A stretch of DNA of 64,000 bases from Dehalococcoidia bacterium (GTDB taxonomy: Bacteria; Chloroflexota; Dehalococcoidia; Lucifugimonadales; UBA2985), in the NCBI GenBank assembly GCA_034422115.1, contig DAOUJW010000015.1:27771-91770 (forward strand), read 5' to 3'. Made by a program: the position numbers and the translations under genes. Below are positions 21,456 through 63,647 of this stretch, one piece after another. Within the stretch, counting starts at the first letter, position 1; the number at the start of each line of letters is the position of its first letter. The notes beneath the pieces were generated by a model. The model was not told the DNA's origin. It worked only from the letters and a program-made list of their open reading frames with translations, and ran no database searches.

Positions 21456-21547
21456 CCGCTCATCCTGAGCTTGTCGAAGGAAATGAGCGGGGGCCGCCCG
21501 TCTTTGCTGTTCCCGCTCAAATGGTTCGACAGGCTCACCATGAGCGG
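21456..21547. repeat. Family A palindromic repeat (two units)
   Basis: CCGCTCATCCTGAGCTTGTCGAAGGAAATGAGCGGG ... CCCGCTCAAATGGTTCGACAGGCTCACCATGAGCGG. Confidence 0.9.
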
Positions 21548-22616: not shown

Positions 22617-22708
22617 CCCGCTCATCCTGAGCTTGTCGAAGGATATGAGCGGGGGGCTACACCGCACTCTTTCCGCTCATATGGTTCGACAAGGCTCACC
22701 ATGAGCGG
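22617..22708. repeat. Family A palindromic repeat (two units)
   Basis: Same architecture as 1087-1181. Confidence 0.9.
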
Positions 22709-51922: not shown

Positions 51923-51955
51923 CCGCTCATGTTGAGCTTGTCGAAGTATGAGCGG
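51923..51955. repeat. Family A repeat, solo unit
   Basis: CCGCTCATGTTGAGCTTGTCGAAGTATGAGCGG. Confidence 0.8.
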
Positions 51956-55915: not shown

Positions 55916-58234
55916 GTGCAGAGAACCCTCAGCCGCTACGTGCTCCTGGAGCAGGTTGGAAGCACCGGCCTTGCCACCATCTACCGCGCCCAGGAGCCTC
56001 AGAAGGAGCGGGAAGTTGCCCTCAAGGTACTCCGCCCCTACCTGTGCGCCGACACCGCCCTTATGGAGCGATTTACGGAGGAGGTGGAGCGGGTGGCCGC
56101 GCTGGACCACCCCAGCATCCTTCCCGTGTACGCCGTCGAGAACGAGGACGGCGTGTACTGGGTCGCCATGCAGCACGTGTCGTGGCCCACTCTTAGGCAG
56201 TGGCTCCAGCAGCCCATCCCCGTCGCCCAGGCCCTGATGATCTTCAGACAGATCGCAGAGGCCGTGGATACGGCGTACACCGAGGGGATCCATCACGGGG
56301 ACATCAAGCCCGGCAACATCTTCCTGGACCCCGATACCGGCAGAGTGATGCTGGGCGATTTTGGCACCCACATCCTTGGCGAGGGCGCATCTCCCGGCAT
56401 GAGGACGGCCCTCAGCACCCCCCTGCCCACCTACAGCGCCCCCGAGCGCAACCAGGGGGGCCCTCCGACCCTGCGCTCGGACATCTACTCCCTTGGCATC
56501 CTCCTGTACGATATGCTGACCGGCACGGTGCCCTTCAGCGCCCTGGACAGGACCGCCGTTCAGACCAAGCAGGTGTCGTCCGCTCCTCCAATCCCCAGCG
56601 AGGTCAACCCCAACGTCCCGTCCAGCCTGGACGCCGTCATCCTCAGGGCACTGACGCCCCACTCCGAGGGTCGCTACGACAGTCCTCAGCAGTTCATAAG
56701 GGCGCTGGTTGAGGCGTCGCCGGTGGCCGACGCGCCCTCCGCTCCCTTTGCGGTCATAGATAGCGCGGAGCTTCAGCCCAGCTTCCCGGGAATGGAGCCT
56801 CCGCCTGCTTCTCCGGACCTGGAGGAGGAGGGGCCGCCCATCGTGTGCGCGGCCTGCGGCCGGAGCAACCCGCCCGGCTCCGAGTGGTGCCGGGATTGCT
56901 GGGGCGTCCTGGGGCGCGTGGCGGCAGCGCCTGGACAGGTGGTTGTCCCCACGGAGGAGAGGCAGCGCAGGTGGAAGCGGAACATCCGGCTTGCCCAGGC
57001 AGCCCTGGCCTCGGTTGCGGCGGCGGTTGCCCTCTTCACAGCGGTGCAGATCCTGGACATCAGGGCGCCCCTCGCAACGCCCTCATCGGACATGAGCTCC
57101 GATTCCGACCCCGGTGAGTGGGCCATGGAGCATCGTAGCTACAGCGGCCCCGTGCCCATATCGGGCGAGCGCAGCGACTTCAGCAACGCCCAGGTGAAGT
57201 GGACCTTCAGCACCGAGGCCGAGATAACCTCCGTTCCCGCAGTCAAGGGAGACCGGGTGTACGTGACCACCCACGACCGCCGCGTGGTGGCCCTGGACGC
57301 AGGGACGGGAGACGTCATCTGGGAGCACAGGGATGTTGCGCCCATAGATTCGTCACCTGCCGTGACGGAGGACCTGGTGATCTACGGCTCCCGGGGAAGG
57401 CGGGTCATAGCCCTGGACGCATATACGGGAGAGTACCGGTGGGAGTTCGTGACGGAGGCGAATCCCACCTATGGATCAGCAATAGTGAAGGACGGAGTGG
57501 CCTACGTAGGCTCCGGCGACGGGAACGTTTACGCCCTGGACGCCCTCACCGGAGAGGAGATGTGGCGCTCCGAGACGACGGCCTGGATCACCAACACCCC
57601 TACCCTGTCGGACGACAAGCTCGTTGTTGCCTCCCTGGACGGCCGCGCAAGGGTCTATGATACGGACACCGGCAAGAGGCGGTTCGCCTCCAGGGCCATC
57701 AACCACGGCATAGAAGGCTCTCCCATAATCGTTGAGGACTCCATATACGTGGTGTATCGCAACGGACAACTCATCTCCCTCAACCTCAACGAGGAGGAGT
57801 TCCCTCTGGCCCAGAAGTGGTACACGGTCAAGACGCAGCTCTACGTCTGGGCCCTCATGGGCCATCCGGGGATGCCCAAGGGCTTCAACTGGTCCTCGCG
57901 AACGCGCCAGACCATCCTGACCACCCCGGCGACCGACGGAGACGCCCTGTTCATCACCTCCCAGGAGGGCAGGCTCATGGCCATCGACCGGCACACGGGA
58001 AGCTCTTTGTGGCTGTACAGGGGAGCCATCGGCAAGAGTCTCTCCACGCCGACCATTGTTGACAACCTGATCCTCGTGGGCGACCGCGACGGAGTCCTCC
58101 ACGCCGTCGATTCCTCCACGGGCGAGGGGCTATGGACGCTGCCCGTCGCCGGGCACAGCATCTCCACGCCGGTTGTCGCGGAAGGCGTCCTCTACCTGGC
58201 CTCCAAGGACGGCAAGCTCTACGCCCTGGAGTGA
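55916..58234 (+). CDS. Ser/Thr protein kinase with Zn-ribbon, TM helix and extracytoplasmic PQQ-like beta-propeller
   Basis: VALKVL, HGDIKPGNIF, GDFG, APE. Also CAACGRSNPPGSEWCRDCW and repeated VYVTTHDRRVVALDAGTGDVIWE-type blades. GTG start. Confidence 0.88.
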   Translation: MQRTLSRYVLLEQVGSTGLATIYRAQEPQKEREVALKVLRPYLCADTALMERFTEEVERVAALDHPSILPVYAVENEDGVYWVAMQHVSWPTLRQWLQQPIPVAQALMIFRQIAEAVDTAYTEGIHHGDIKPGNIFLDPDTGRVMLGDFGTHILGEGASPGMRTALSTPLPTYSAPERNQGGPPTLRSDIYSLGILLYDMLTGTVPFSALDRTAVQTKQVSSAPPIPSEVNPNVPSSLDAVILRALTPHSEGRYDSPQQFIRALVEASPVADAPSAPFAVIDSAELQPSFPGMEPPPASPDLEEEGPPIVCAACGRSNPPGSEWCRDCWGVLGRVAAAPGQVVVPTEERQRRWKRNIRLAQAALASVAAAVALFTAVQILDIRAPLATPSSDMSSDSDPGEWAMEHRSYSGPVPISGERSDFSNAQVKWTFSTEAEITSVPAVKGDRVYVTTHDRRVVALDAGTGDVIWEHRDVAPIDSSPAVTEDLVIYGSRGRRVIALDAYTGEYRWEFVTEANPTYGSAIVKDGVAYVGSGDGNVYALDALTGEEMWRSETTAWITNTPTLSDDKLVVASLDGRARVYDTDTGKRRFASRAINHGIEGSPIIVEDSIYVVYRNGQLISLNLNEEEFPLAQKWYTVKTQLYVWALMGHPGMPKGFNWSSRTRQTILTTPATDGDALFITSQEGRLMAIDRHTGSSLWLYRGAIGKSLSTPTIVDNLILVGDRDGVLHAVDSSTGEGLWTLPVAGHSISTPVVAEGVLYLASKDGKLYALE

Positions 58235-59343: not shown

Positions 59344-59395
59344 ATCGCTATGGCCTTACAGAGGCCGCGTAAGGGAATGGAAATGCGCAGGTTTT

Positions 59396-59640
59396 TGTCA
59401 TTCCTGCGAAAGCAGGAATCTAAGATTACGGCCACGCCCCGCCCCTGGATTCCCGCCTTCGGAGACCTTTGCACAACTACGGCGTCATCCCGCAGGGAGT
59501 ACGCTTTTCGTCATTCCCGCGAAAGCGGGAATCTAGTTCCTTCTATTCCGAGTGCCCTAGACCCCTGCTTTCGCAGGGGTGACGAAGAGAGAGCGCCCCA
59601 ACTAAGGGTTATTCAAAGGTCTCCCTTCGCGGGAATGGTC
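59396..59640. repeat. Cluster of five family B-type hairpin units in mixed orientation
   Basis: Units near 59396, 59446, 59508, 59557 and 59618. Confidence 0.8.
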
Positions 59641-59712
59641 TGGATGCCTCGCGCCCCGTCAAGGGAGACCATTGCATAGCTCTCCAGAGCTCTCAGCTAA
59701 CTCCCATCCCTA

Positions 59713-59779
59713 CCTTTCCCCGCCTGCGGAGGAAGGGGTTGTTCTCTCCCCCTTGAGGGGGAGAGTCAGAGAGGGGGTG
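59713..59779. repeat. Family D double GC-hairpin, solo copy (no DUF559 gene)
   Basis: CCTTTCCCCGCCTGCGGAGGAAGG plus the 38-nt block identical to 32903-32940. Confidence 0.9.
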
Positions 59780-59818
59780 TACGCCGTAAGTGATGGTTCA
59801 AGTGACCCACCCCGGGAG

Positions 59819-61003
59819 ATGGGCCTCTACGTCCACATCCCCTTCTGCCACACCAAGTGCCCCTACTGCGACTTCAACACCTACGCGGGAATAGAGACCC
59901 TCATACCCGGCTACATGGAGGCCCTGGCGCAGGAGATACGCTGCTGGGGCGCTCTACTGGGCGCGCCGCAGGTGAACACCGTCTTCTTCGGGGGCGGCAC
60001 GCCTTCATACGTCCCAAGACAGGCCCTTGCCGACGTTCTGGCATCCGTCCATGACGTCTTCCGCGTCGCGCCCGACGCCGAGATAACCATTGAAGCCAAC
60101 CCCGGCGACCTCCTCGAAGATGGGGCGGCCTCCCTCCGGGATGCCGGCGTCAACCGGCTGAGCATAGGCGTTCAGAGCCTGGACGACGGGCTGCTGGAGG
60201 TCCTGGGCAGAAGGCACACGGCGCAGGAAGCCTTGTCGGCATACCAGGCAGTGCGGCAGGCAGGCTTCGACAACGTAAGCATCGACCTGATGTACGGCCT
60301 GCCGCACCAGGGCCTTGAGCAGTGGCGGGACACCCTGGAGCGAGCGCTGGAGCTGTCGCCGGAGCACATGTCCCTCTACTGCCTGACCCTGGAGGGCGGC
60401 ACGCCAATGGAGCGGCAGGTCACCCAGGGCGAGATGCCCCAACCGGACCCGAACCTGGCGGCGGACATGTACACCCTGGCGGAAGAGTCGCTGGCGGCGG
60501 CCGGCTACCGCCACTACGAGATAAGCAACTGGGCCAGGCCGGGCATGGAGAGTCGCCACAACCTGACCTACTGGCTCAACAGGCCGTACCTGGGCGTGGG
60601 GCCGGGGGCGCACTCCTACCTGGGCCGGTGGCGTTTCTGGAACATCAACTCGCCCCGGGAGTACATAGGCCGCCTTCGAGACGCGGCTCCCGGTTCATCC
60701 CCAGTTGAGGCCATCTCTGAGGAAGCGATACGGACGTTCCCGTGCGTGGGGTCGATAGAGGCCATAGACAGAAGGCTTGAGATGGCGGAGACTATGATGC
60801 TGGGGATGAGGCTGGAGGATGGCGTGCGGCTGGACGCCTTTCAGGACAGGTTTGGCGAGGCCGTCACGTCGGTATACCGCAAGCAGGTGGACGAGCTGAC
60901 CGGCCTGGGACTTATCGAGCAGAGAGACGGCGCTCTGCGCCTGACGGCGCAGGGCCGTCCGCTGGGCAATGAGGTTTTTTTGCGTTTCGTAGAGGTTCTT
61001 TAG
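59819..61003 (+). CDS. hemW: Radical SAM haem chaperone HemW / HemN-like
   Basis: LYVHIPFCHTKCPYCDFN, FFGGGTPS. ATG 59819; the track start 59672 reads through repeats. Confidence 0.85.
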   Translation: MGLYVHIPFCHTKCPYCDFNTYAGIETLIPGYMEALAQEIRCWGALLGAPQVNTVFFGGGTPSYVPRQALADVLASVHDVFRVAPDAEITIEANPGDLLEDGAASLRDAGVNRLSIGVQSLDDGLLEVLGRRHTAQEALSAYQAVRQAGFDNVSIDLMYGLPHQGLEQWRDTLERALELSPEHMSLYCLTLEGGTPMERQVTQGEMPQPDPNLAADMYTLAEESLAAAGYRHYEISNWARPGMESRHNLTYWLNRPYLGVGPGAHSYLGRWRFWNINSPREYIGRLRDAAPGSSPVEAISEEAIRTFPCVGSIEAIDRRLEMAETMMLGMRLEDGVRLDAFQDRFGEAVTSVYRKQVDELTGLGLIEQRDGALRLTAQGRPLGNEVFLRFVEVL

Positions 61004-61039: not shown

Positions 61040-61636
61040 ATGACTAGCAGCAACTACAAGCAGCAGTTGAACCAGCTTGGATCGGAGATATCCCGGGGCC
61101 TGGTGTACTACTCCGTGTGGGAGGCCCTGTGGCCCACGGATGAGACCGTCAGGATCATCGACAGGCTCAGGAACTTCGCGGCCCCTGTGCGCGGCGCGCT
61201 GTTCGAGACCGTGCTAATGCGCTTCTCAAACGTCATGTACAGGGAGAGCGAGATACCCGACCTGCCGTCGATGCTCCAAGCCGCCGCAGACGACAGAGAG
61301 GCCCTCGCGCCTCACGCCACGGAGAGGGAGCTTGCCGACATGATGGAGCAGGCATCCCAGCAGGAGCGCGCGCTCGACGCCCTGCTGCGCGCTAGGGAGC
61401 AGCACATTCACCAGCTGGGCGGAAACCCATTTGACGACGCGACCCTGCGTAAGGGGGACGTGGAGAACTTTGTGAAGTCCGTCCAGCAGATATTCAACCG
61501 CCTTTACACCGCCCACGACGACGACCGCTACATCTGGTCGGCGCAGGCCCAGCGCTCCGCCATGACCACCATGCAGCTGCTGGAGTTCCTGGAGTCGGAG
61601 ATGGCGTCCAGCCAGAGGGAAAGGGAGTCCGGTTAG
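61040..61636 (+). CDS. Hypothetical protein, possibly HEPN (AbiU2-like)
   Basis: 198 aa, all-helical composition, Rx4H motif in LLRAREQHIHQL; N-terminal layout recalls AbiU2-type proteins. Confidence 0.35.
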   Translation: MTSSNYKQQLNQLGSEISRGLVYYSVWEALWPTDETVRIIDRLRNFAAPVRGALFETVLMRFSNVMYRESEIPDLPSMLQAAADDREALAPHATERELADMMEQASQQERALDALLRAREQHIHQLGGNPFDDATLRKGDVENFVKSVQQIFNRLYTAHDDDRYIWSAQAQRSAMTTMQLLEFLESEMASSQRERESG

Positions 61637-61708
61637 GGCAGGCCTCGCATGAGGACATTCCTGGGGTGAGTTGGTCTCAACTATCCTCGTGGGGAGAAAA
61701 ACCTATTG

Positions 61709-61823
61709 CCCGCTCATAGCCTGCCCCGTACTTGATACGGGGGTGAGCCTGTCGAACAATATGAGCGGGAGTTTTGAGGTCTTGCAGCCTCCGCTCACCC
61801 TTCGACATGCTCTGGGTGAGCGG
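61709..61823. repeat. Family A repeat with inserted CCCCGTA hairpin module
   Basis: CCCGCTCAT-AGCCTGCCCCGTACTTGATACGGGGG-TGAGCCTGTCGAACAATATGAGCGGG, plus the variant unit CCGCTCACCC...GGGTGAGCGG. Confidence 0.85.
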
Positions 61824-61895: not shown

Positions 61896-63026
61896 ATGCG
61901 TGTCCTAGTCTTTGCATCCACGACCCTGGGAGTAGTCGTCGCTGCGGTCCTGCTGGTCCTGCTGGTACGAACCAACTCGGAGCTAAACGCCAGCAAGAGC
62001 CGGGTGGAGGCCAGTCAGGTACGCATAGAGCAGCTCACCACAGACCTCGGAGCGGTGACACAGCGGCTGAATGAAGAGACGGCCAGCTTTGAAGCAGCCA
62101 ATTCTCGGCTTGCCGGCGCTATCGCGGAGAATGCAGGCCTGAAGGCCGAACTCGGTGTGACGACAGAACAGCTGGACGCTCAGACAAGCAGGAACGAAAC
62201 GCTGACCGCCGACCTACTGGAGTCCAGTGAAGAACTGGGAAGAAATACGGCGGAGAACAAGGCTCTTGCCACCAATCTTGAAACCGTCACGCGGCAACTG
62301 GCCGATAAGTCGGCGGACTATGACACCCTGCTGCATGAGGCGGGAACCCTGGAAGACCTGAGAGCAGATAAAGACACCCTACTGAGCGAGATAGAGGCGC
62401 TGAGAAGCTCGATAAGGGAGTTGGAGAGGCAGAGAATCCCCCTCATCGTCCACTCCCAGACCCAGGGGTTCAGGTGTACCGGAAGCATGGAGCCCAAGAT
62501 AACCTGCCTGGACTCTGCAAGCTGGCTGCGCAACTTCAATCCTGAAGACGTGACAGTGGGGTCTGTCATCGTATTCACTCCAACCGCTGAGTGCGAGATC
62601 GGTCAAGGCACCGTGTCACATCGCGTCCTGGACATCAGAGAGGTTGAGGGGACCTACTACTTCTGGCCCAAGGGGGACGCCAATCCCGACGCCGACGGGT
62701 GCTGGATACCCGACACCAACGTGTACGGGTACATGGTTGAGCTGCACAAGGACACGCACCCGCAGAACACAGCCCTCCGAAACAGGGTGAACTCCGCCAA
62801 AGCAAAGAGAGACGAGACCTTTGCGACGTACAAGGCCGCTGAGGAGACGTACAACCAGCGATACCAGGCATACTGCGGGCACAGCCCGGACGCCTGCTCC
62901 CTGGACCCGGCGCGCGTTGCTGAGTTGGACAGGCTGTACGACGAGTACATCCGTCTGTTCAACATCCACCAGGAGGCTTTCGAGGCCTGGAATGCCGTCT
63001 TCCAGGAGGCGTGGACGAATTACTAG
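61896..63026 (+). CDS. Membrane-anchored coiled-coil protein with S26B (SipW/Sec11-type) signal-peptidase-like domain
   Basis: N-terminal TM (LGVVVAAVLLVLLV), about 170-aa heptad-rich segment, then CTGSMEPKI...GSVIVF...SHRV...KGDANPDAD...VYGYMVE, then a 100-aa helical tail. Confidence 0.7.
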   Translation: MRVLVFASTTLGVVVAAVLLVLLVRTNSELNASKSRVEASQVRIEQLTTDLGAVTQRLNEETASFEAANSRLAGAIAENAGLKAELGVTTEQLDAQTSRNETLTADLLESSEELGRNTAENKALATNLETVTRQLADKSADYDTLLHEAGTLEDLRADKDTLLSEIEALRSSIRELERQRIPLIVHSQTQGFRCTGSMEPKITCLDSASWLRNFNPEDVTVGSVIVFTPTAECEIGQGTVSHRVLDIREVEGTYYFWPKGDANPDADGCWIPDTNVYGYMVELHKDTHPQNTALRNRVNSAKAKRDETFATYKAAEETYNQRYQAYCGHSPDACSLDPARVAELDRLYDEYIRLFNIHQEAFEAWNAVFQEAWTNY

Positions 63027-63097: not shown

Positions 63098-63191
63098 CCC
63101 GCTCACCCTTCGACAGGCTCAGGGTGAGCGGGGTTTGCACACTACGCCCGCTGTCTTCCCGCTCTGGTTCGACAAGCTCACCATGAGCGGG
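63098..63191. repeat. Family A palindromic repeat (two units)
   Basis: CCCGCTCACCCTTCGACAGGCTCAGGGTGAGCGGG ... CCCGCTCTGGTTCGACAAGCTCACCATGAGCGGG. Confidence 0.85.
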
Positions 63192-63341
63192 AAAGAAGTA
63201 GTACTACAACCAGCGTGGCATTGCCAACACGCTTTGGGGAGACCAGGCGCTACGTTGCTTTGACAGCAAGCGGGCTTTCAGATAGAGTTGAATGACCATT
63301 CGGGCTTTCGGGGACACCAGAATAGATGGAGGGATACAGCG

Positions 63342-63647
63342 ATGTCCGCCCATCATTTCGCATCCAGGTCAAGCCGGAACCAGGCCTCGCCCGGCGGCGA
63401 GCCCGGGGCAAAGACCTACGAGTTTGAAGTAAAGCTGGAAACGGACGAAGACGGCTGGCATGTCTTCTACCCACCCTGGTCCGGCATCGGCGCCTCCACC
63501 TGGGGCTACACCCGAAAAGAGGCGCTGGACAACATCCGGGAAGTCCTCTCCATGATAGTGGAGGAGCTCCTGGAAGAAGGCAAGCCCGTGAGCGTCGAGA
63601 AGGCCGCCGTGGCGGACGGAAGAGAATCGGTCCTTGTGACCGTGTGA
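63342..63647 (+). CDS. HicB-like (UPF0150) antitoxin-fold protein
   Basis: YEFEVKLETDEDGWHVFYPPWSGIGASTWGYTRKEALDNIREVLSMIVEEL; no DNA-binding tail; ATG 63342. Confidence 0.6.
   Translation: MSAHHFASRSSRNQASPGGEPGAKTYEFEVKLETDEDGWHVFYPPWSGIGASTWGYTRKEALDNIREVLSMIVEELLEEGKPVSVEKAAVADGRESVLVTV

Follow-up and report, generated by a model that had tools for sequence, protein, structure and literature searches.

To our knowledge, type I signal peptidases, whatever their kind, are regarded as enzymes that owe their specificity to their position at the membrane. A reading frame in a 64-kb stretch of DNA from a Dehalococcoidia bacterium (hereafter the window) raises the question of what such an enzyme does when its catalytic head stands elsewhere, as the predicted protein carries an S26B-type peptidase domain that is separated from its membrane anchor by a long coiled coil. 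The protein belongs to a large conserved family that keeps the S26B machinery yet holds it 100-400 coiled-coil residues from the anchor. From the analyses below we propose, with a probability of roughly one half, that it is an active extracytoplasmic endopeptidase that is held off the membrane and cuts envelope or secreted proteins, and that does not act at the translocon.

The gene is intact, with an ATG start, 376 codons and a stop, and we take the ATG at position 61896 as the true start because the Shine-Dalgarno-like AAAGGAGAA ahead of it supports this choice. An earlier note, made from the letters of this DNA, had described a transmembrane (TM) helix, a heptad-rich stalk, a domain with motifs in signal peptidase order and a helical tail. 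All of these are present in the translation and in an AlphaFold2 (AF2) model, and each motif that it quoted was found (GSMEP at residues 196-200, GSVIVF at 222-227, SHRV at 241-244, KGDANPDAD at 259-267 and VYGYMVE at 276-282). The AF2 model (mean pLDDT 84.8) consists of a single long helix from residue 4 to 183, with a kink at 150-151, followed by a beta domain (187-284) and two further helices (289-327 and 338-374). This is a model of the monomer, and the extension of the stalk and the packing of the C-terminal hairpin are to be read as monomer predictions. The coordinates of these features are collected in the table.

Table. Features of the gene for the stalked S26B protein and its flanks, in positions of the window.
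Feature	Position	Strand	Basis or remark
REP-like 33-nt palindrome, upstream	61791..61823	.	Not part of the gene's function
Shine-Dalgarno-like AAAGGAGAA	61885..61893	+	Read from the sequence; ends 2 nt upstream of the ATG
Stalked S26B peptidase reading frame, complete	61896..63026	+	Full length; colinear with at least 65 homologues
N-terminal TM signal-anchor helix, residues ~4-24	61905..61967	+	Hydropathy and family flank charges
Extracytoplasmic coiled-coil stalk (predicted), residues 25-183	61968..62444	+	AF2 helix, 3.5-residue periodicity and coiled-coil matches
Minimal S26B (Sec11/SipW/archaeal-type) domain, residues 184-286	62445..62753	+	TIGR02228, SEC11A/C profile and Foldseek
Ser197 codon, predicted nucleophile	62484..62486	+	Aligns with SEC11A Ser56; conserved C194 and C204 on either side
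His242-Arg243 codons (HRV)	62619..62624	+	SEC11A His96 (general base) and Arg97 (structural Arg)
D261...D267 (GDANPDAD)	62676..62696	+	SEC11A Asp116 (salt bridge to Arg) and Asp122 (third triad residue)
C-terminal helical hairpin, residues 287-376	62754..63023	+	AF2 helices and conservation
Second copy of the palindrome, 94% identical, downstream	63099..63131	.	Possible transcript-end hairpin

To assign the domain, we used profile searches and predicted structure. The NCBIfam model TIGR02228 matched residues 194-284 (E = 5e-12), with scores that do not reach the curated equivalog cutoff of 51.85 bits, the level that denotes the same function as the named signal peptidase I: the full-length protein scored 46.0 bits and the domain 46.9 bits. 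The match covers positions 38-122 of the 158 in the profile; positions 123-158 are unmatched, and the hairpin stands in their place. All 26 family members tested matched this model (best E = 6.9e-13), and 19 of the 26 matched the SipW model. Because a single-sequence phmmer search of the PDB returned SEC11C at E = 0.56 only, a family profile was required, and this found both SEC11C (E = 3e-6) and SEC11A (E = 9.5e-6), their motifs in register with those of the family. Among named proteins, archaeal ones called signal peptidase I are nearest to the domain (E = 1e-12 to 1e-7). The Pfam S24/S26 models matched neither the full protein nor the 26 domain sequences, with only coiled-coil noise returned, and therefore the assignment stands on NCBIfam, the PDB profile and the fold.

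As the 180-residue helix diluted a Foldseek search with the full-length model, we repeated the search with a model of the domain plus tail (pLDDT 88.5, pTM 0.70). This matched SpsB (4wvh), UmuD' (1ay9) and LexA (3k2z) at probabilities of 0.99-1.0, and the signal peptidase I of Bacillus phage BCD7 (E = 5.4e-4, rmsd 3.0 Å over 108 columns); the E-values of the search are modest (1e-2 to 5e-4), and SEC11 chains were absent from its top 50. Together, the TIGR02228 match, the SEC11A/C profile, the S24/S26 fold and the alignment of the catalytic residues bear out the earlier assignment of this domain to S26B.

The residues expected of such an enzyme are all in place. S197, H242 and D267 align with Ser56, His96 and Asp122 of SEC11A, and the R243-D261 pair aligns with Arg97-Asp116, residues whose roles have been described (bioRxiv 10.1101/2020.11.11.378711). 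Boxes B, D and E supply the Ser, His and Asp of a triad, respectively, in contrast to the Ser-Lys dyad of S26A and S24 proteins. These five residues are invariant or nearly so across the family, HRV being present in 170 of the 176 motif-bearing members and the serine being retained even among variant motifs. As this near-invariance extends over hundreds of clusters, it argues that catalysis has been retained. We conclude that the domain belongs to the S26B-type peptidases and has intact catalytic residues, and we predict from its sequence that it is active.

The presence of the self-cleaving UmuD' and LexA among the best structural neighbors suggests a different use for this head, in which the S26-fold domain would process itself, in cis or from one protomer of the coiled-coil bundle to the next. 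The models for this are LexA, UmuD, phage repressors and the C-terminal chaperone-protease domains of phage tail spikes, and the outcome would be release of the head or the hairpin, or maturation of a surface fiber formed by the stalk. A protein that is its own substrate would fit a gene with no conserved partner or substrate gene (see below), and the conserved R-x-P-L-I-V before the domain and LRNxVN after it are candidate cleavage sites. However, the sequence affinity is to S26B enzymes with a Ser-His-Asp triad, not to the Ser-Lys self-cleavers of S24, no self-cleavage loop of the Ala-Gly or Cys-Gly type is evident, and the conserved flanks are predicted to form a regular strand and a regular helix. 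We consider self-processing of this kind quite unlikely.

Between the anchor and the head, the hydrophobic residues L, I, V, M and F recur with a periodicity of 3.5 residues (power 2.83 vs 0.36 ± 0.20 in shuffles, 0 of 2000 of which reached the observed value). The stalk keeps a single heptad register for ~22 heptads (~160 residues), matches SMC/Rad50-type coiled coils in Pfam and NCBIfam scans, and is predicted to measure ~23 nm if fully extended. The earlier claim of a coiled-coil stalk is thus supported both by this periodicity and by the continuous AF2 helix. The distance from the end of the TM helix to the serine is 176 residues here, and it ranges from 109 to 334 residues (median 191) among the 139 proteins measured for stalk and flanks, each of which has a TM helix and the motif; in canonical archaeal-type S26B enzymes, the serine lies ~10-15 residues past the TM helix. 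The stalk itself is 109-334 residues long in the proteins surveyed and ~108-424 residues in genomic copies. Its length shifts by heptad-multiple repeats, with 14- and 21-residue units visible in the alignment, and its sequence is quick to diverge (identity between paralogues of 18-35% in the stalk vs 45-56% in the domain).

These features of the stalk bear on whether the protein could be a genuine signal peptidase at the membrane, with the coiled coil, laid along the membrane or folded back, serving for oligomerization or regulation. The active site would then meet signal peptides as they emerge from SecYEG, and the protein could be a housekeeping enzyme or, like SipW, one dedicated to a subset of preproteins. 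Such a role would accord with the fully conserved catalytic residues, with the identity of every characterized S26B enzyme as a signal peptidase, with the name signal peptidase I borne by the nearest named relatives of the domain, and with the beta1 segment PLIV ahead of the serine, which resembles the post-TM segment of Sec11. On the other hand, the ~22 heptads are unbroken and without a central turn, AF2 predicts one helix, and the length of the stalk varies two- to four-fold around a constant domain. In addition, a soluble hairpin takes the place of the C-terminal membrane-proximal region of S26B enzymes, and the family is patchy, multi-copy and restricted to one class, unlike a housekeeping enzyme. 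We regard a signal peptidase working at the membrane as unlikely.

In the structure of the human SPC, the active site lies against a bilayer that is thinned there and gauges the hydrophobic core of the signal peptide. The active site of SEC11 abuts the membrane (bioRxiv 10.1101/2020.11.11.378711). Given this position and the canonical spacing of the serine, it is reasonable to consider a role at the translocon unlikely for the stalked protein. Displacement of the catalytic head from its anchor would instead imply a different mode of substrate recognition and a job other than general secretion.

To place the head on one side of the membrane, we examined the charges on either side of the TM helix, which reaches a hydropathy of 2.64 in its best window of 19 residues. 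The flank charges of the 376-residue protein alone are ambiguous (+1 vs +2), so the N-in/C-out call rests on the family, in which the net charge is +1.5 on the N-terminal flank and -0.9 on the C-terminal flank and the N-terminal flank is the more positive in 125 of 139 proteins. Conserved cysteines are found in the domain and tail (C194 and C204 around the serine, plus C269, C327 and C334), and the stalks are nearly devoid of cysteine. This distribution and the positive-inside rule, applied to the family, together argue for an extracytoplasmic location, and we predict at family level that the C-terminal part lies outside and the N-terminus inside. The hairpin opens with the conserved LRNxVN, and Cys327 and Cys334 lie in the loop between its helices.

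The stalked architecture is common to at least 447 clusters at 50% identity. Of the 50 genomic loci recovered, 49 belong to metagenome-assembled genomes of Dehalococcoidia/Chloroflexota, with 1-3 paralogues per genome, and this copy number and narrow distribution suggest that the family is accessory rather than universal. Complete Dehalococcoidia chromosomes with the gene include OZ242025.1, OX638292.1 and OZ220698.1. The order of TM helix, stalk and domain held family-wide in a survey of 139 proteins and 50 loci: the stalk is at least 109 residues long in the 139 proteins, and no stalk-less copy was found among the 50 loci. Apparent stalk-less homologues proved to be truncated gene calls that start within the coiled coil (P0198, P0199, P0140 and P0200), a frameshifted copy with its TM helix and stalk in another frame (L034), or copies cut by contig ends (L012 and L027). 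In one protein, P0206, a Pro-rich linker may mark a rare variant. We found no curated family, protein name or paper that describes a stalked S26B architecture, in agreement with the earlier impression that it had not been described.

We also considered whether the architecture could be an artefact, namely a mis-joined reading frame, an assembly-specific fusion, or a repeat-bounded mobile or defence cargo accompanied by HEPN-like and HicB-like reading frames. The G+C content of the gene is slightly below that of the window (58.8% vs 62.5%; the 50% given earlier was not reproduced), palindromic repeats lie on both sides, and the small neighboring reading frames have toxin-antitoxin-like features. 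Against this, occurrence of the same single-frame architecture in at least 447 clusters and 50 loci excludes a mis-joined reading frame. The repeats do bracket the gene, as had been noted, but they belong to a REP-like family with 9 strict copies scattered along the entire window and do not mark a mobile island; no strict copy was found within ±8 kb of the gene in its three closest relatives (L006-L008). Relatives hold the gene in a conserved chromosomal synteny (kinase-ychF-hemW-target-selB-nurA) with or without the small reading frames. Thus, a mobile island fails as an explanation on the conserved synteny, the dispersed repeats and the measured G+C content, and no defence-system or phage family was matched beyond coiled-coil noise. 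We consider an artefactual origin effectively refuted.

The 198-residue reading frame at 61040-61636, described earlier as HEPN-like, was found in only 3 related genomes among 55 loci, and the syntenic locus L002 lacks it. It gave no significant HEPN or defence match in PDB, Pfam, NCBIfam, PADLOC or PHROGs, leaving the label without HMM support, and its co-occurrence with the stalked gene is limited to the three closest genomes. A bare R-x4-H motif can be seen in it by eye.

To survey the neighborhood of the homologues more widely, we compared the reading frames around the 50 loci by all-against-all blastp. No conserved neighbor or operon partner emerged, any one neighbor being present at no more than 7 of the 50 loci; those that are shared reflect clade-local synteny, and the contexts differ between clades. 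The proposal that the enzyme acts on a filament, sheath or TasA-like subunit is not sustained by a partner gene of that kind at any of the 50 loci. One-off neighbors include a collagen-repeat gene in L004 and SWM-repeat genes in L005. A motif scan detected no canonical LepB-type peptidase within the window, and promoter and terminator scans around the gene returned weak consensus matches at chance level.

From these data we favor a type II (N-in, C-out) protein in a monoderm bacterium without peptidoglycan, in which one TM helix would anchor an extracytoplasmic coiled coil that is probably oligomeric and that may stand extended rather than folded back. A predicted Ser-His-Asp endopeptidase of S26B type would sit at its far end. 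The stalk would replace the junction between TM helix and beta1 of canonical S26B enzymes, and the helical hairpin, probably stapled by a disulfide, would replace their C-terminal membrane-proximal segment. We infer that this enzyme has given up signal peptide removal at the translocon and would instead cleave exported proteins in or at the outer surface layer, for example by removal of propeptides or by maturation of envelope, S-layer or secreted proteins, with the stalk setting its working height. The envelope of Dehalococcoidia is monoderm and has an S-layer-like layer, and genes for peptidoglycan synthesis are lacking (PMC10444878).

An envelope with no peptidoglycan and an S-layer-like coat would also suit a mainly structural role as spacer or anchor, setting or sensing how far the surface layer lies from the membrane, with an S26-like head that binds and proteolysis that is secondary or lost. 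Old paralogues of one genome keep similar stalk lengths (gap of 18 residues vs 53 for random pairs, P ~0.01, in five genomes only), which hints at a cell-specific constraint on length and counts in favor of the endopeptidase held off the membrane as well. Furthermore, the stalks are rich in Thr and Ser and in N-x-S/T sequons (239 vs 195 ± 13), as in surface glycoproteins. However, these length and sequon statistics come from small samples and are confounded by relatedness, and the near-invariant Ser, His, Asp and Arg-Asp pair argue for retained catalysis. We give little credence to a mainly structural role.

Returning to an endopeptidase held off the membrane, a more specific form of this proposal is possible, if rather doubtful as a whole. 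The protein may be the first S26B enzyme uncoupled from the membrane, with a coiled-coil ruler that sets its height tens of nanometers out and a helical neck, made up of the distal stalk and the C-terminal hairpin, that replaces the bilayer in positioning substrates. Surface-layer or secreted proteins would be matured after export, and the length of the stalk would be tuned to the envelope of each cell.

Dehalococcoidia are abundant in the oceans and the subsurface, are mostly uncultured, and have an envelope biogenesis that is essentially uncharted. A family confined to this class therefore offers a concrete molecular handle on how such an envelope is built or remodeled, and the head, only ~100 residues long and modeled at high confidence, is amenable to biochemical testing.

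Among known systems, the S26B enzymes (SEC11A/C, archaeal signal peptidase I and SipW) have a homologous domain with the same box order (GSMEP...HRV...KGDxN..D), and they share the Ser-His-Asp triad, the Arg-Asp structural pair and the N-terminal signal-anchor topology. The stalked protein differs from them in the 109-334 coiled-coil residues that separate TM helix and domain, where canonical enzymes have ~10-15, in the extra conserved cysteines around the nucleophile, and in a score below the NCBIfam equivalog cutoff. Where the stalked protein has its Cys-containing hairpin, the S26B profile has its C-terminal third, and with it the C-terminal TM segment of archaeal enzymes and SipW. The 50 loci contain no adjacent substrate gene comparable to the tapA-sipW-tasA arrangement. 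S24 proteins (LexA, UmuD' and phage repressors) have a compact beta-barrel core of similar fold and size and are among the top Foldseek matches (probability 0.99, TM 0.54-0.60 normalized to UmuD'). However, they are cytoplasmic and self-cutting and use a Ser-Lys dyad, whereas the domain described here has a His in the HRV box, matches S26B profiles and is predicted to be extracytoplasmic.

The combination of an extracytoplasmic coiled coil with a C-terminal hydrolase-type domain is also found in EnvC, PcsB, CwlO and RipC, which are peptidoglycan hydrolases or activators governed by FtsEX via the coiled coil. The stalked S26B protein shares this layout but differs in having a host without peptidoglycan, no adjacent ftsEX at the 50 loci, and a head of unrelated fold. 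As a natural protease on a ruler, it is comparable by analogy only, not homology, to the archaeal tetrabrachion-STABLE complex of Staphylothermus marinus, in which a protease is carried part-way out on a membrane-anchored coiled-coil stalk (PMC5744192). The host of that complex has an S-layer and no peptidoglycan, and processing of S-layer precursors is among the roles proposed for it (PMC5744192). STABLE, a subtilisin, is held non-covalently on its stalk, which is 70 nm long, four-stranded and right-handed (undecad) and is the S-layer protein itself, whereas here an S26B domain is covalently continuous with a heptad coiled coil of ~16-60 nm without S-layer arms.

The gene studied here is one unbroken ORF, 376 codons long and starting at ATG, preceded immediately by AAAGGAGAA, and its translation contains every motif that the earlier note had quoted at these coordinates (Table). 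We found that residues 194-284 of the product match TIGR02228, the NCBIfam model of archaeal/ER-type signal peptidase I, with an E-value of 5e-12 and a score of 46 bits, slightly below the 51.85 bits set as its curated cutoff. The match to the NCBIfam model of Bacillus SipW was weak, and a Pfam scan of it returned coiled-coil noise only. When 26 family members were tested one by one, all matched TIGR02228 (best E 6.9e-13) and 19 matched the SipW model. A profile built from the C-terminal 200 residues of the family matched human SEC11C (7p2q, E 3e-6) and SEC11A (7p2p, E 9.5e-6; 9rjb, E 5.4e-5) in the PDB, with GSMEP, HRV and KGDxN..D all in register. The SEC11A residues aligned in this way (Table) include its catalytic triad, Ser56, His96 and Asp122, and the Asp116-Arg97 salt bridge (bioRxiv 10.1101/2020.11.11.378711). 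When only the domain was used as query, the closest proteins outside the family were ordinary signal peptidases of 150-205 aa, several of them named 'signal peptidase I' (Haloferax, Halolamina, Methanocellales; E 1e-12 to 1e-7, about 30-40% identity).

Features of the stalked S26B gene, its product and the surrounding DNA (window coordinates unless a locus is named; residue numbers refer to the 376-aa product)
Feature	Position	Remark
Stalked S26B peptidase gene	61896-63026 (+)	
GSMEP	res 196-200	read in translation
GSVIVF	res 222-227	read in translation
SHRV	res 241-244	read in translation
KGDANPDAD	res 259-267	read in translation
VYGYMVE	res 276-282	read in translation
S197		aligned to SEC11A Ser56, counted through profile alignment
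H242		aligned to SEC11A His96, counted through profile alignment
R243		aligned to SEC11A Arg97, counted through profile alignment
D261		aligned to SEC11A Asp116, counted through profile alignment
D267		aligned to SEC11A Asp122, counted through profile alignment
Paralogue sets by genome		L017/L019; L023/L045/L053; L026/L055; L031/L042; L032/L041
REP-like palindromes	1088-1180, 21456-21547, 22618-22708, 51923-51955, 61791-61823, 63099-63131	last two flank the peptidase gene
Degenerate palindrome copies	61700-61760, 63150-63195	
Kinase-PQQ gene	55916-58234	
Inverted-repeat nest	59390-59690	ychF-hemW gap
109-aa ORF	59350-59679	
hemW-like radical-SAM ORF	59672-61003	TTG start, 443 aa
198-aa ORF	61040-61636	
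HicB-like ORF	63288-63647	
Collagen-repeat protein	L004 6902-7690	upstream of distant homologue
Two SWM-repeat proteins	L005 9421-12712	downstream of distant homologue
Frameshifted copy	L034 6700-8700	

Foldseek searches with the full-length model returned S. aureus SpsB and UmuD' at probability 1.0, and a model of the domain plus tail (pLDDT 88.5, pTM 0.70) returned UmuD', LexA and SpsB at 0.99-1.0; the top named match in a viral library was a Bacillus phage 'signal peptidase I' (E 5.4e-4, rmsd 3.0 A, 108 columns). The E-values are modest, yet the predicted fold agrees with the sequence evidence and supports the S26B assignment proposed earlier, which the HMM and profile matches likewise bear out. 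These fold neighbours would also fit a protein that processes itself, like LexA/UmuD or a phage tail-spike chaperone domain, a reading that we consider unlikely in view of the sequence affinity to Ser-His-Asp S26B enzymes. Among 197 retrieved proteins, 176 contain G-S-M-E/D-P, and HRV is present in 170 of these 176; full-length exceptions (e.g. GSVEP, ASMEP, GSMYP) still have the Ser. This near-invariance of the catalytic residues argues against the protein being chiefly a structural spacer whose head has no catalytic role, a reading that we regard as very unlikely.

An AlphaFold2 model of the protein (input alignment of 38 sequences; mean pLDDT 84.8) predicts a single very long helix at residues 4-183, kinked at 150-151, followed by a small beta domain (187-284) and two long helices (289-327 and 338-374). 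Within residues 25-183, L/I/V/M/F positions show a 3.5-residue periodicity (power 2.83 versus 0.36 +/- 0.20 in shuffles) that 0/2000 shuffles reached, and, laid out in sevens, the segment keeps a single register over ~22 heptads with just one Pro. The predicted helix and this periodicity together uphold the coiled-coil stalk that had been proposed. If extended, the stalk would reach roughly 23 nm, at ~0.15 nm per residue.

The same plan runs throughout the family alignment: an N-terminal TM helix, a helical stalk, a sharply conserved block (R-x-P-L-I-V ... C-T-G-S-M-E-P-K-I-T-C-L-D ... H-R-V ... K-G-D-x-x-x-x-x-D-G-C-W ... G-Y-I-I-E-L-H-K) and a hairpin that starts at a conserved L-R-N-x-V-N and has a C-G-x(5-6)-C loop. 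The stalk is weakly conserved and varies in length, often with 14- or 21-residue repeats (heptad multiples). The Ser lies 109-334 residues beyond the end of the TM helix in the retrieved proteins (median 191, no short case) and about 108-424 in 50 loci of species-representative genomes. One apparent exception, the copy at L034, is split by a frameshift inside the stalk, with the TM helix and stalk in another frame; it is a pseudogene or else reflects an error in long-read assembly. Two further apparent exceptions among the 50 loci are genes cut by contig ends, and the short 'stalk-less' top matches of the domain search start mid-coiled coil and are truncated gene calls. As the stalk is found in all measured proteins and loci, the homologues cannot be taken for ordinary SipW genes, nor the stalk for the product of a mis-joined ORF.

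A word-indexed search recovered 65 homologues, nearly all of 340-515 aa; just four had source names, each 'hypothetical protein', and both organism-labelled ones are from Chloroflexi MAGs. An exhaustive HMMER search against 1.84 billion representatives gave 447 clusters with E <= 1e-3; of these, 290 reached <= 1e-10 and 168 reached <= 1e-30. The 50 loci include no named cultured genus; 49 are from Dehalococcoidia/Chloroflexota MAGs and one is from a MAG binned as Acidimicrobiaceae. Five of the genomes carry two or three copies. Stalk identity between paralogues is 18-35% versus 45-56% for the domain, the low stalk values holding in 4/5 multi-copy genomes, and stalk lengths of same-genome paralogues differ by a mean of 18 aa versus 53 aa for random pairs (P about 0.01, five genomes). 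Fast sequence change with length kept is loosely consistent with a height-setting role, and the similar lengths among same-genome paralogues hint at the same. N-x-S/T sequons are modestly enriched in stalks (239 versus 195 +/- 13 in shuffles, z 3.4, over 147 non-independent proteins), a possible sign of glycosylation or else a consequence of heptad composition. The unit 'AENETLTADL' recurs many times in the stalks of some homologues, and one protein, P0206, appears to have a Pro-rich linker in place of the coiled coil, after a weak hydrophobic N-terminus.

The family mean net charge is +1.5 in the 15 residues before the TM helix versus -0.9 in the 15 after it, with the N-side more positive in 125/139 proteins, which gives a predicted N-in/C-out orientation, as in signal peptidases; the flanks of the target protein by itself are ambiguous (+1 versus +2). 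Some homologues have a strongly basic N-terminus or a longer N-terminal extension, and in one (P0014) a 55-residue cytoplasmic extension bears a CPEC motif. Five Cys are conserved in head and tail, C194 and C204 on either side of the Ser, C269, C327 and C334, and family stalks contain 2 Cys in 26,753 residues. This pattern is consistent with an extracytoplasmic head that would be stabilised by disulfides.

Chromosomal gene order around the target is conserved among the closest relatives (Ser/Thr kinase-PQQ, ychF, hemW, target, selB, nurA/herA), and distant homologues lie in unrelated contexts. Surveying the 50 loci for a conserved partner by all-against-all ORF comparison, we found no neighbour family in more than 7, antisense shadows of the target aside. 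The gene stands alone, and its context does not indicate a substrate; the absence of a partner would also fit self-processing. One-off surface-type neighbours of distant homologues at L004 and L005 (Table) are not conserved and are possible substrate leads. The 198-aa ORF that the earlier note called HEPN-like, and whose co-occurrence it raised, gave no significant hit when searched against Pfam, NCBIfam, PDB, PADLOC and PHROGs, leaving that assignment without HMM or PDB support; an R-x4-H motif (RAREQH, residues 118-123) was seen by eye. This ORF and the HicB-like one are confined to the three nearest genomes, one with a different order. The syntenic locus L002 lacks the 198-aa ORF, which resembles a lineage-specific insertion separating hemW from the peptidase gene. 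The HicB-like antitoxin ORF is weakly supported (Pfam PF15919, E 0.0016; phrog_497, E 3.5e-5), has no obvious HicA partner close by, and at L008 its homologue lies upstream, not downstream, of the peptidase gene.

The bracketing repeats reported earlier are real, as 33-nt palindromes flank the gene on both sides, but their family is spread over the whole window (9 strict copies versus 0.12 expected by chance), and no strict copy lies within +/-8 kb of the gene in L006-L008. Members are 33-36 nt (CCGCTCA ... TTCGACA or GCTTGTCGAA ... TGAGCGG) and are often paired in intergenic DNA, two different variants standing ~57 nt apart. The G+C of the gene is indeed lower than that of the window, at 58.8% (57.9% at its minimum in the stalk) versus 62.5%, not the 50% first given, and its Ala/Glu/Leu/Thr/Asn-rich composition accounts for the dip. 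With repeats dispersed, the G+C dip compositional and the small ORFs limited to the three nearest genomes, there is no sign of a mobile or defence island; together with the conserved architecture, this effectively refutes an artefact or mobile cargo. Elsewhere in this region, a dense nest of 17-29-nt inverted repeats of a second, GTCATTCCTGCGAAAGCAGGAATC-like family produces the 109-aa ORF, which is probably not a real gene. The hemW-like ORF is probably ~40 codons too long as listed: its orthologues span 394-405 aa, and the closest of them (L001/L006, L008-L010) show similarity from residue 40-41 onward. The kinase-PQQ gene encodes a 772-aa Ser/Thr protein kinase with a fused PQQ-type beta-propeller, and the closest relatives share its synteny with ychF, hemW and the peptidase gene.

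In canonical S26B enzymes the Ser lies ~10-15 residues past the N-terminal TM helix, and archaeal and SipW enzymes have a second hydrophobic segment at the C-terminal end. The active site of the human SPC sits against a local stretch of thinned bilayer, which selects for short hydrophobic cores (bioRxiv 10.1101/2020.11.11.378711). In contrast, the stalked family has a coiled coil in place of the N-terminal TM-to-domain junction, and a helical hairpin replaces positions 123-158 of the TIGR02228 profile, so that soluble helices stand in for each of the two membrane-proximal elements. A signal peptidase still working at the membrane, its coiled coil folding back or oligomerising, is rather unlikely: the heptad register is unbroken, stalks vary in length, the C-terminal membrane segment has been lost, and the family is multi-copy and patchily distributed. 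Because of this replacement, and because cultured Dehalococcoidia are monoderm, without peptidoglycan synthesis genes and with an S-layer-like outer layer (PMC10444878), we favour a model in which a membrane-anchored, probably oligomeric rod would hold an active Ser-His-Asp endopeptidase out in the envelope, at a distance of tens of nanometres, where it would cut already exported proteins, for example in propeptide removal or in maturation of surface-layer or secreted proteins. The family, which is large, clean and open to testing, touches on a cell envelope about which almost nothing is known.

We found no Pfam/NCBIfam family, annotation past 'hypothetical protein' or description in the literature searched of an S26B/SipW peptidase on a coiled-coil stalk. 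The catalytic module is of a known kind; the architecture is new, as is the implied uncoupling of S26B catalysis from the membrane. The closest functional analogue, by analogy and not homology, is the STABLE/tetrabrachion system of Staphylothermus marinus, in which a subtilisin-type protease is bound to a 70-nm coiled-coil stalk (PMC5744192).
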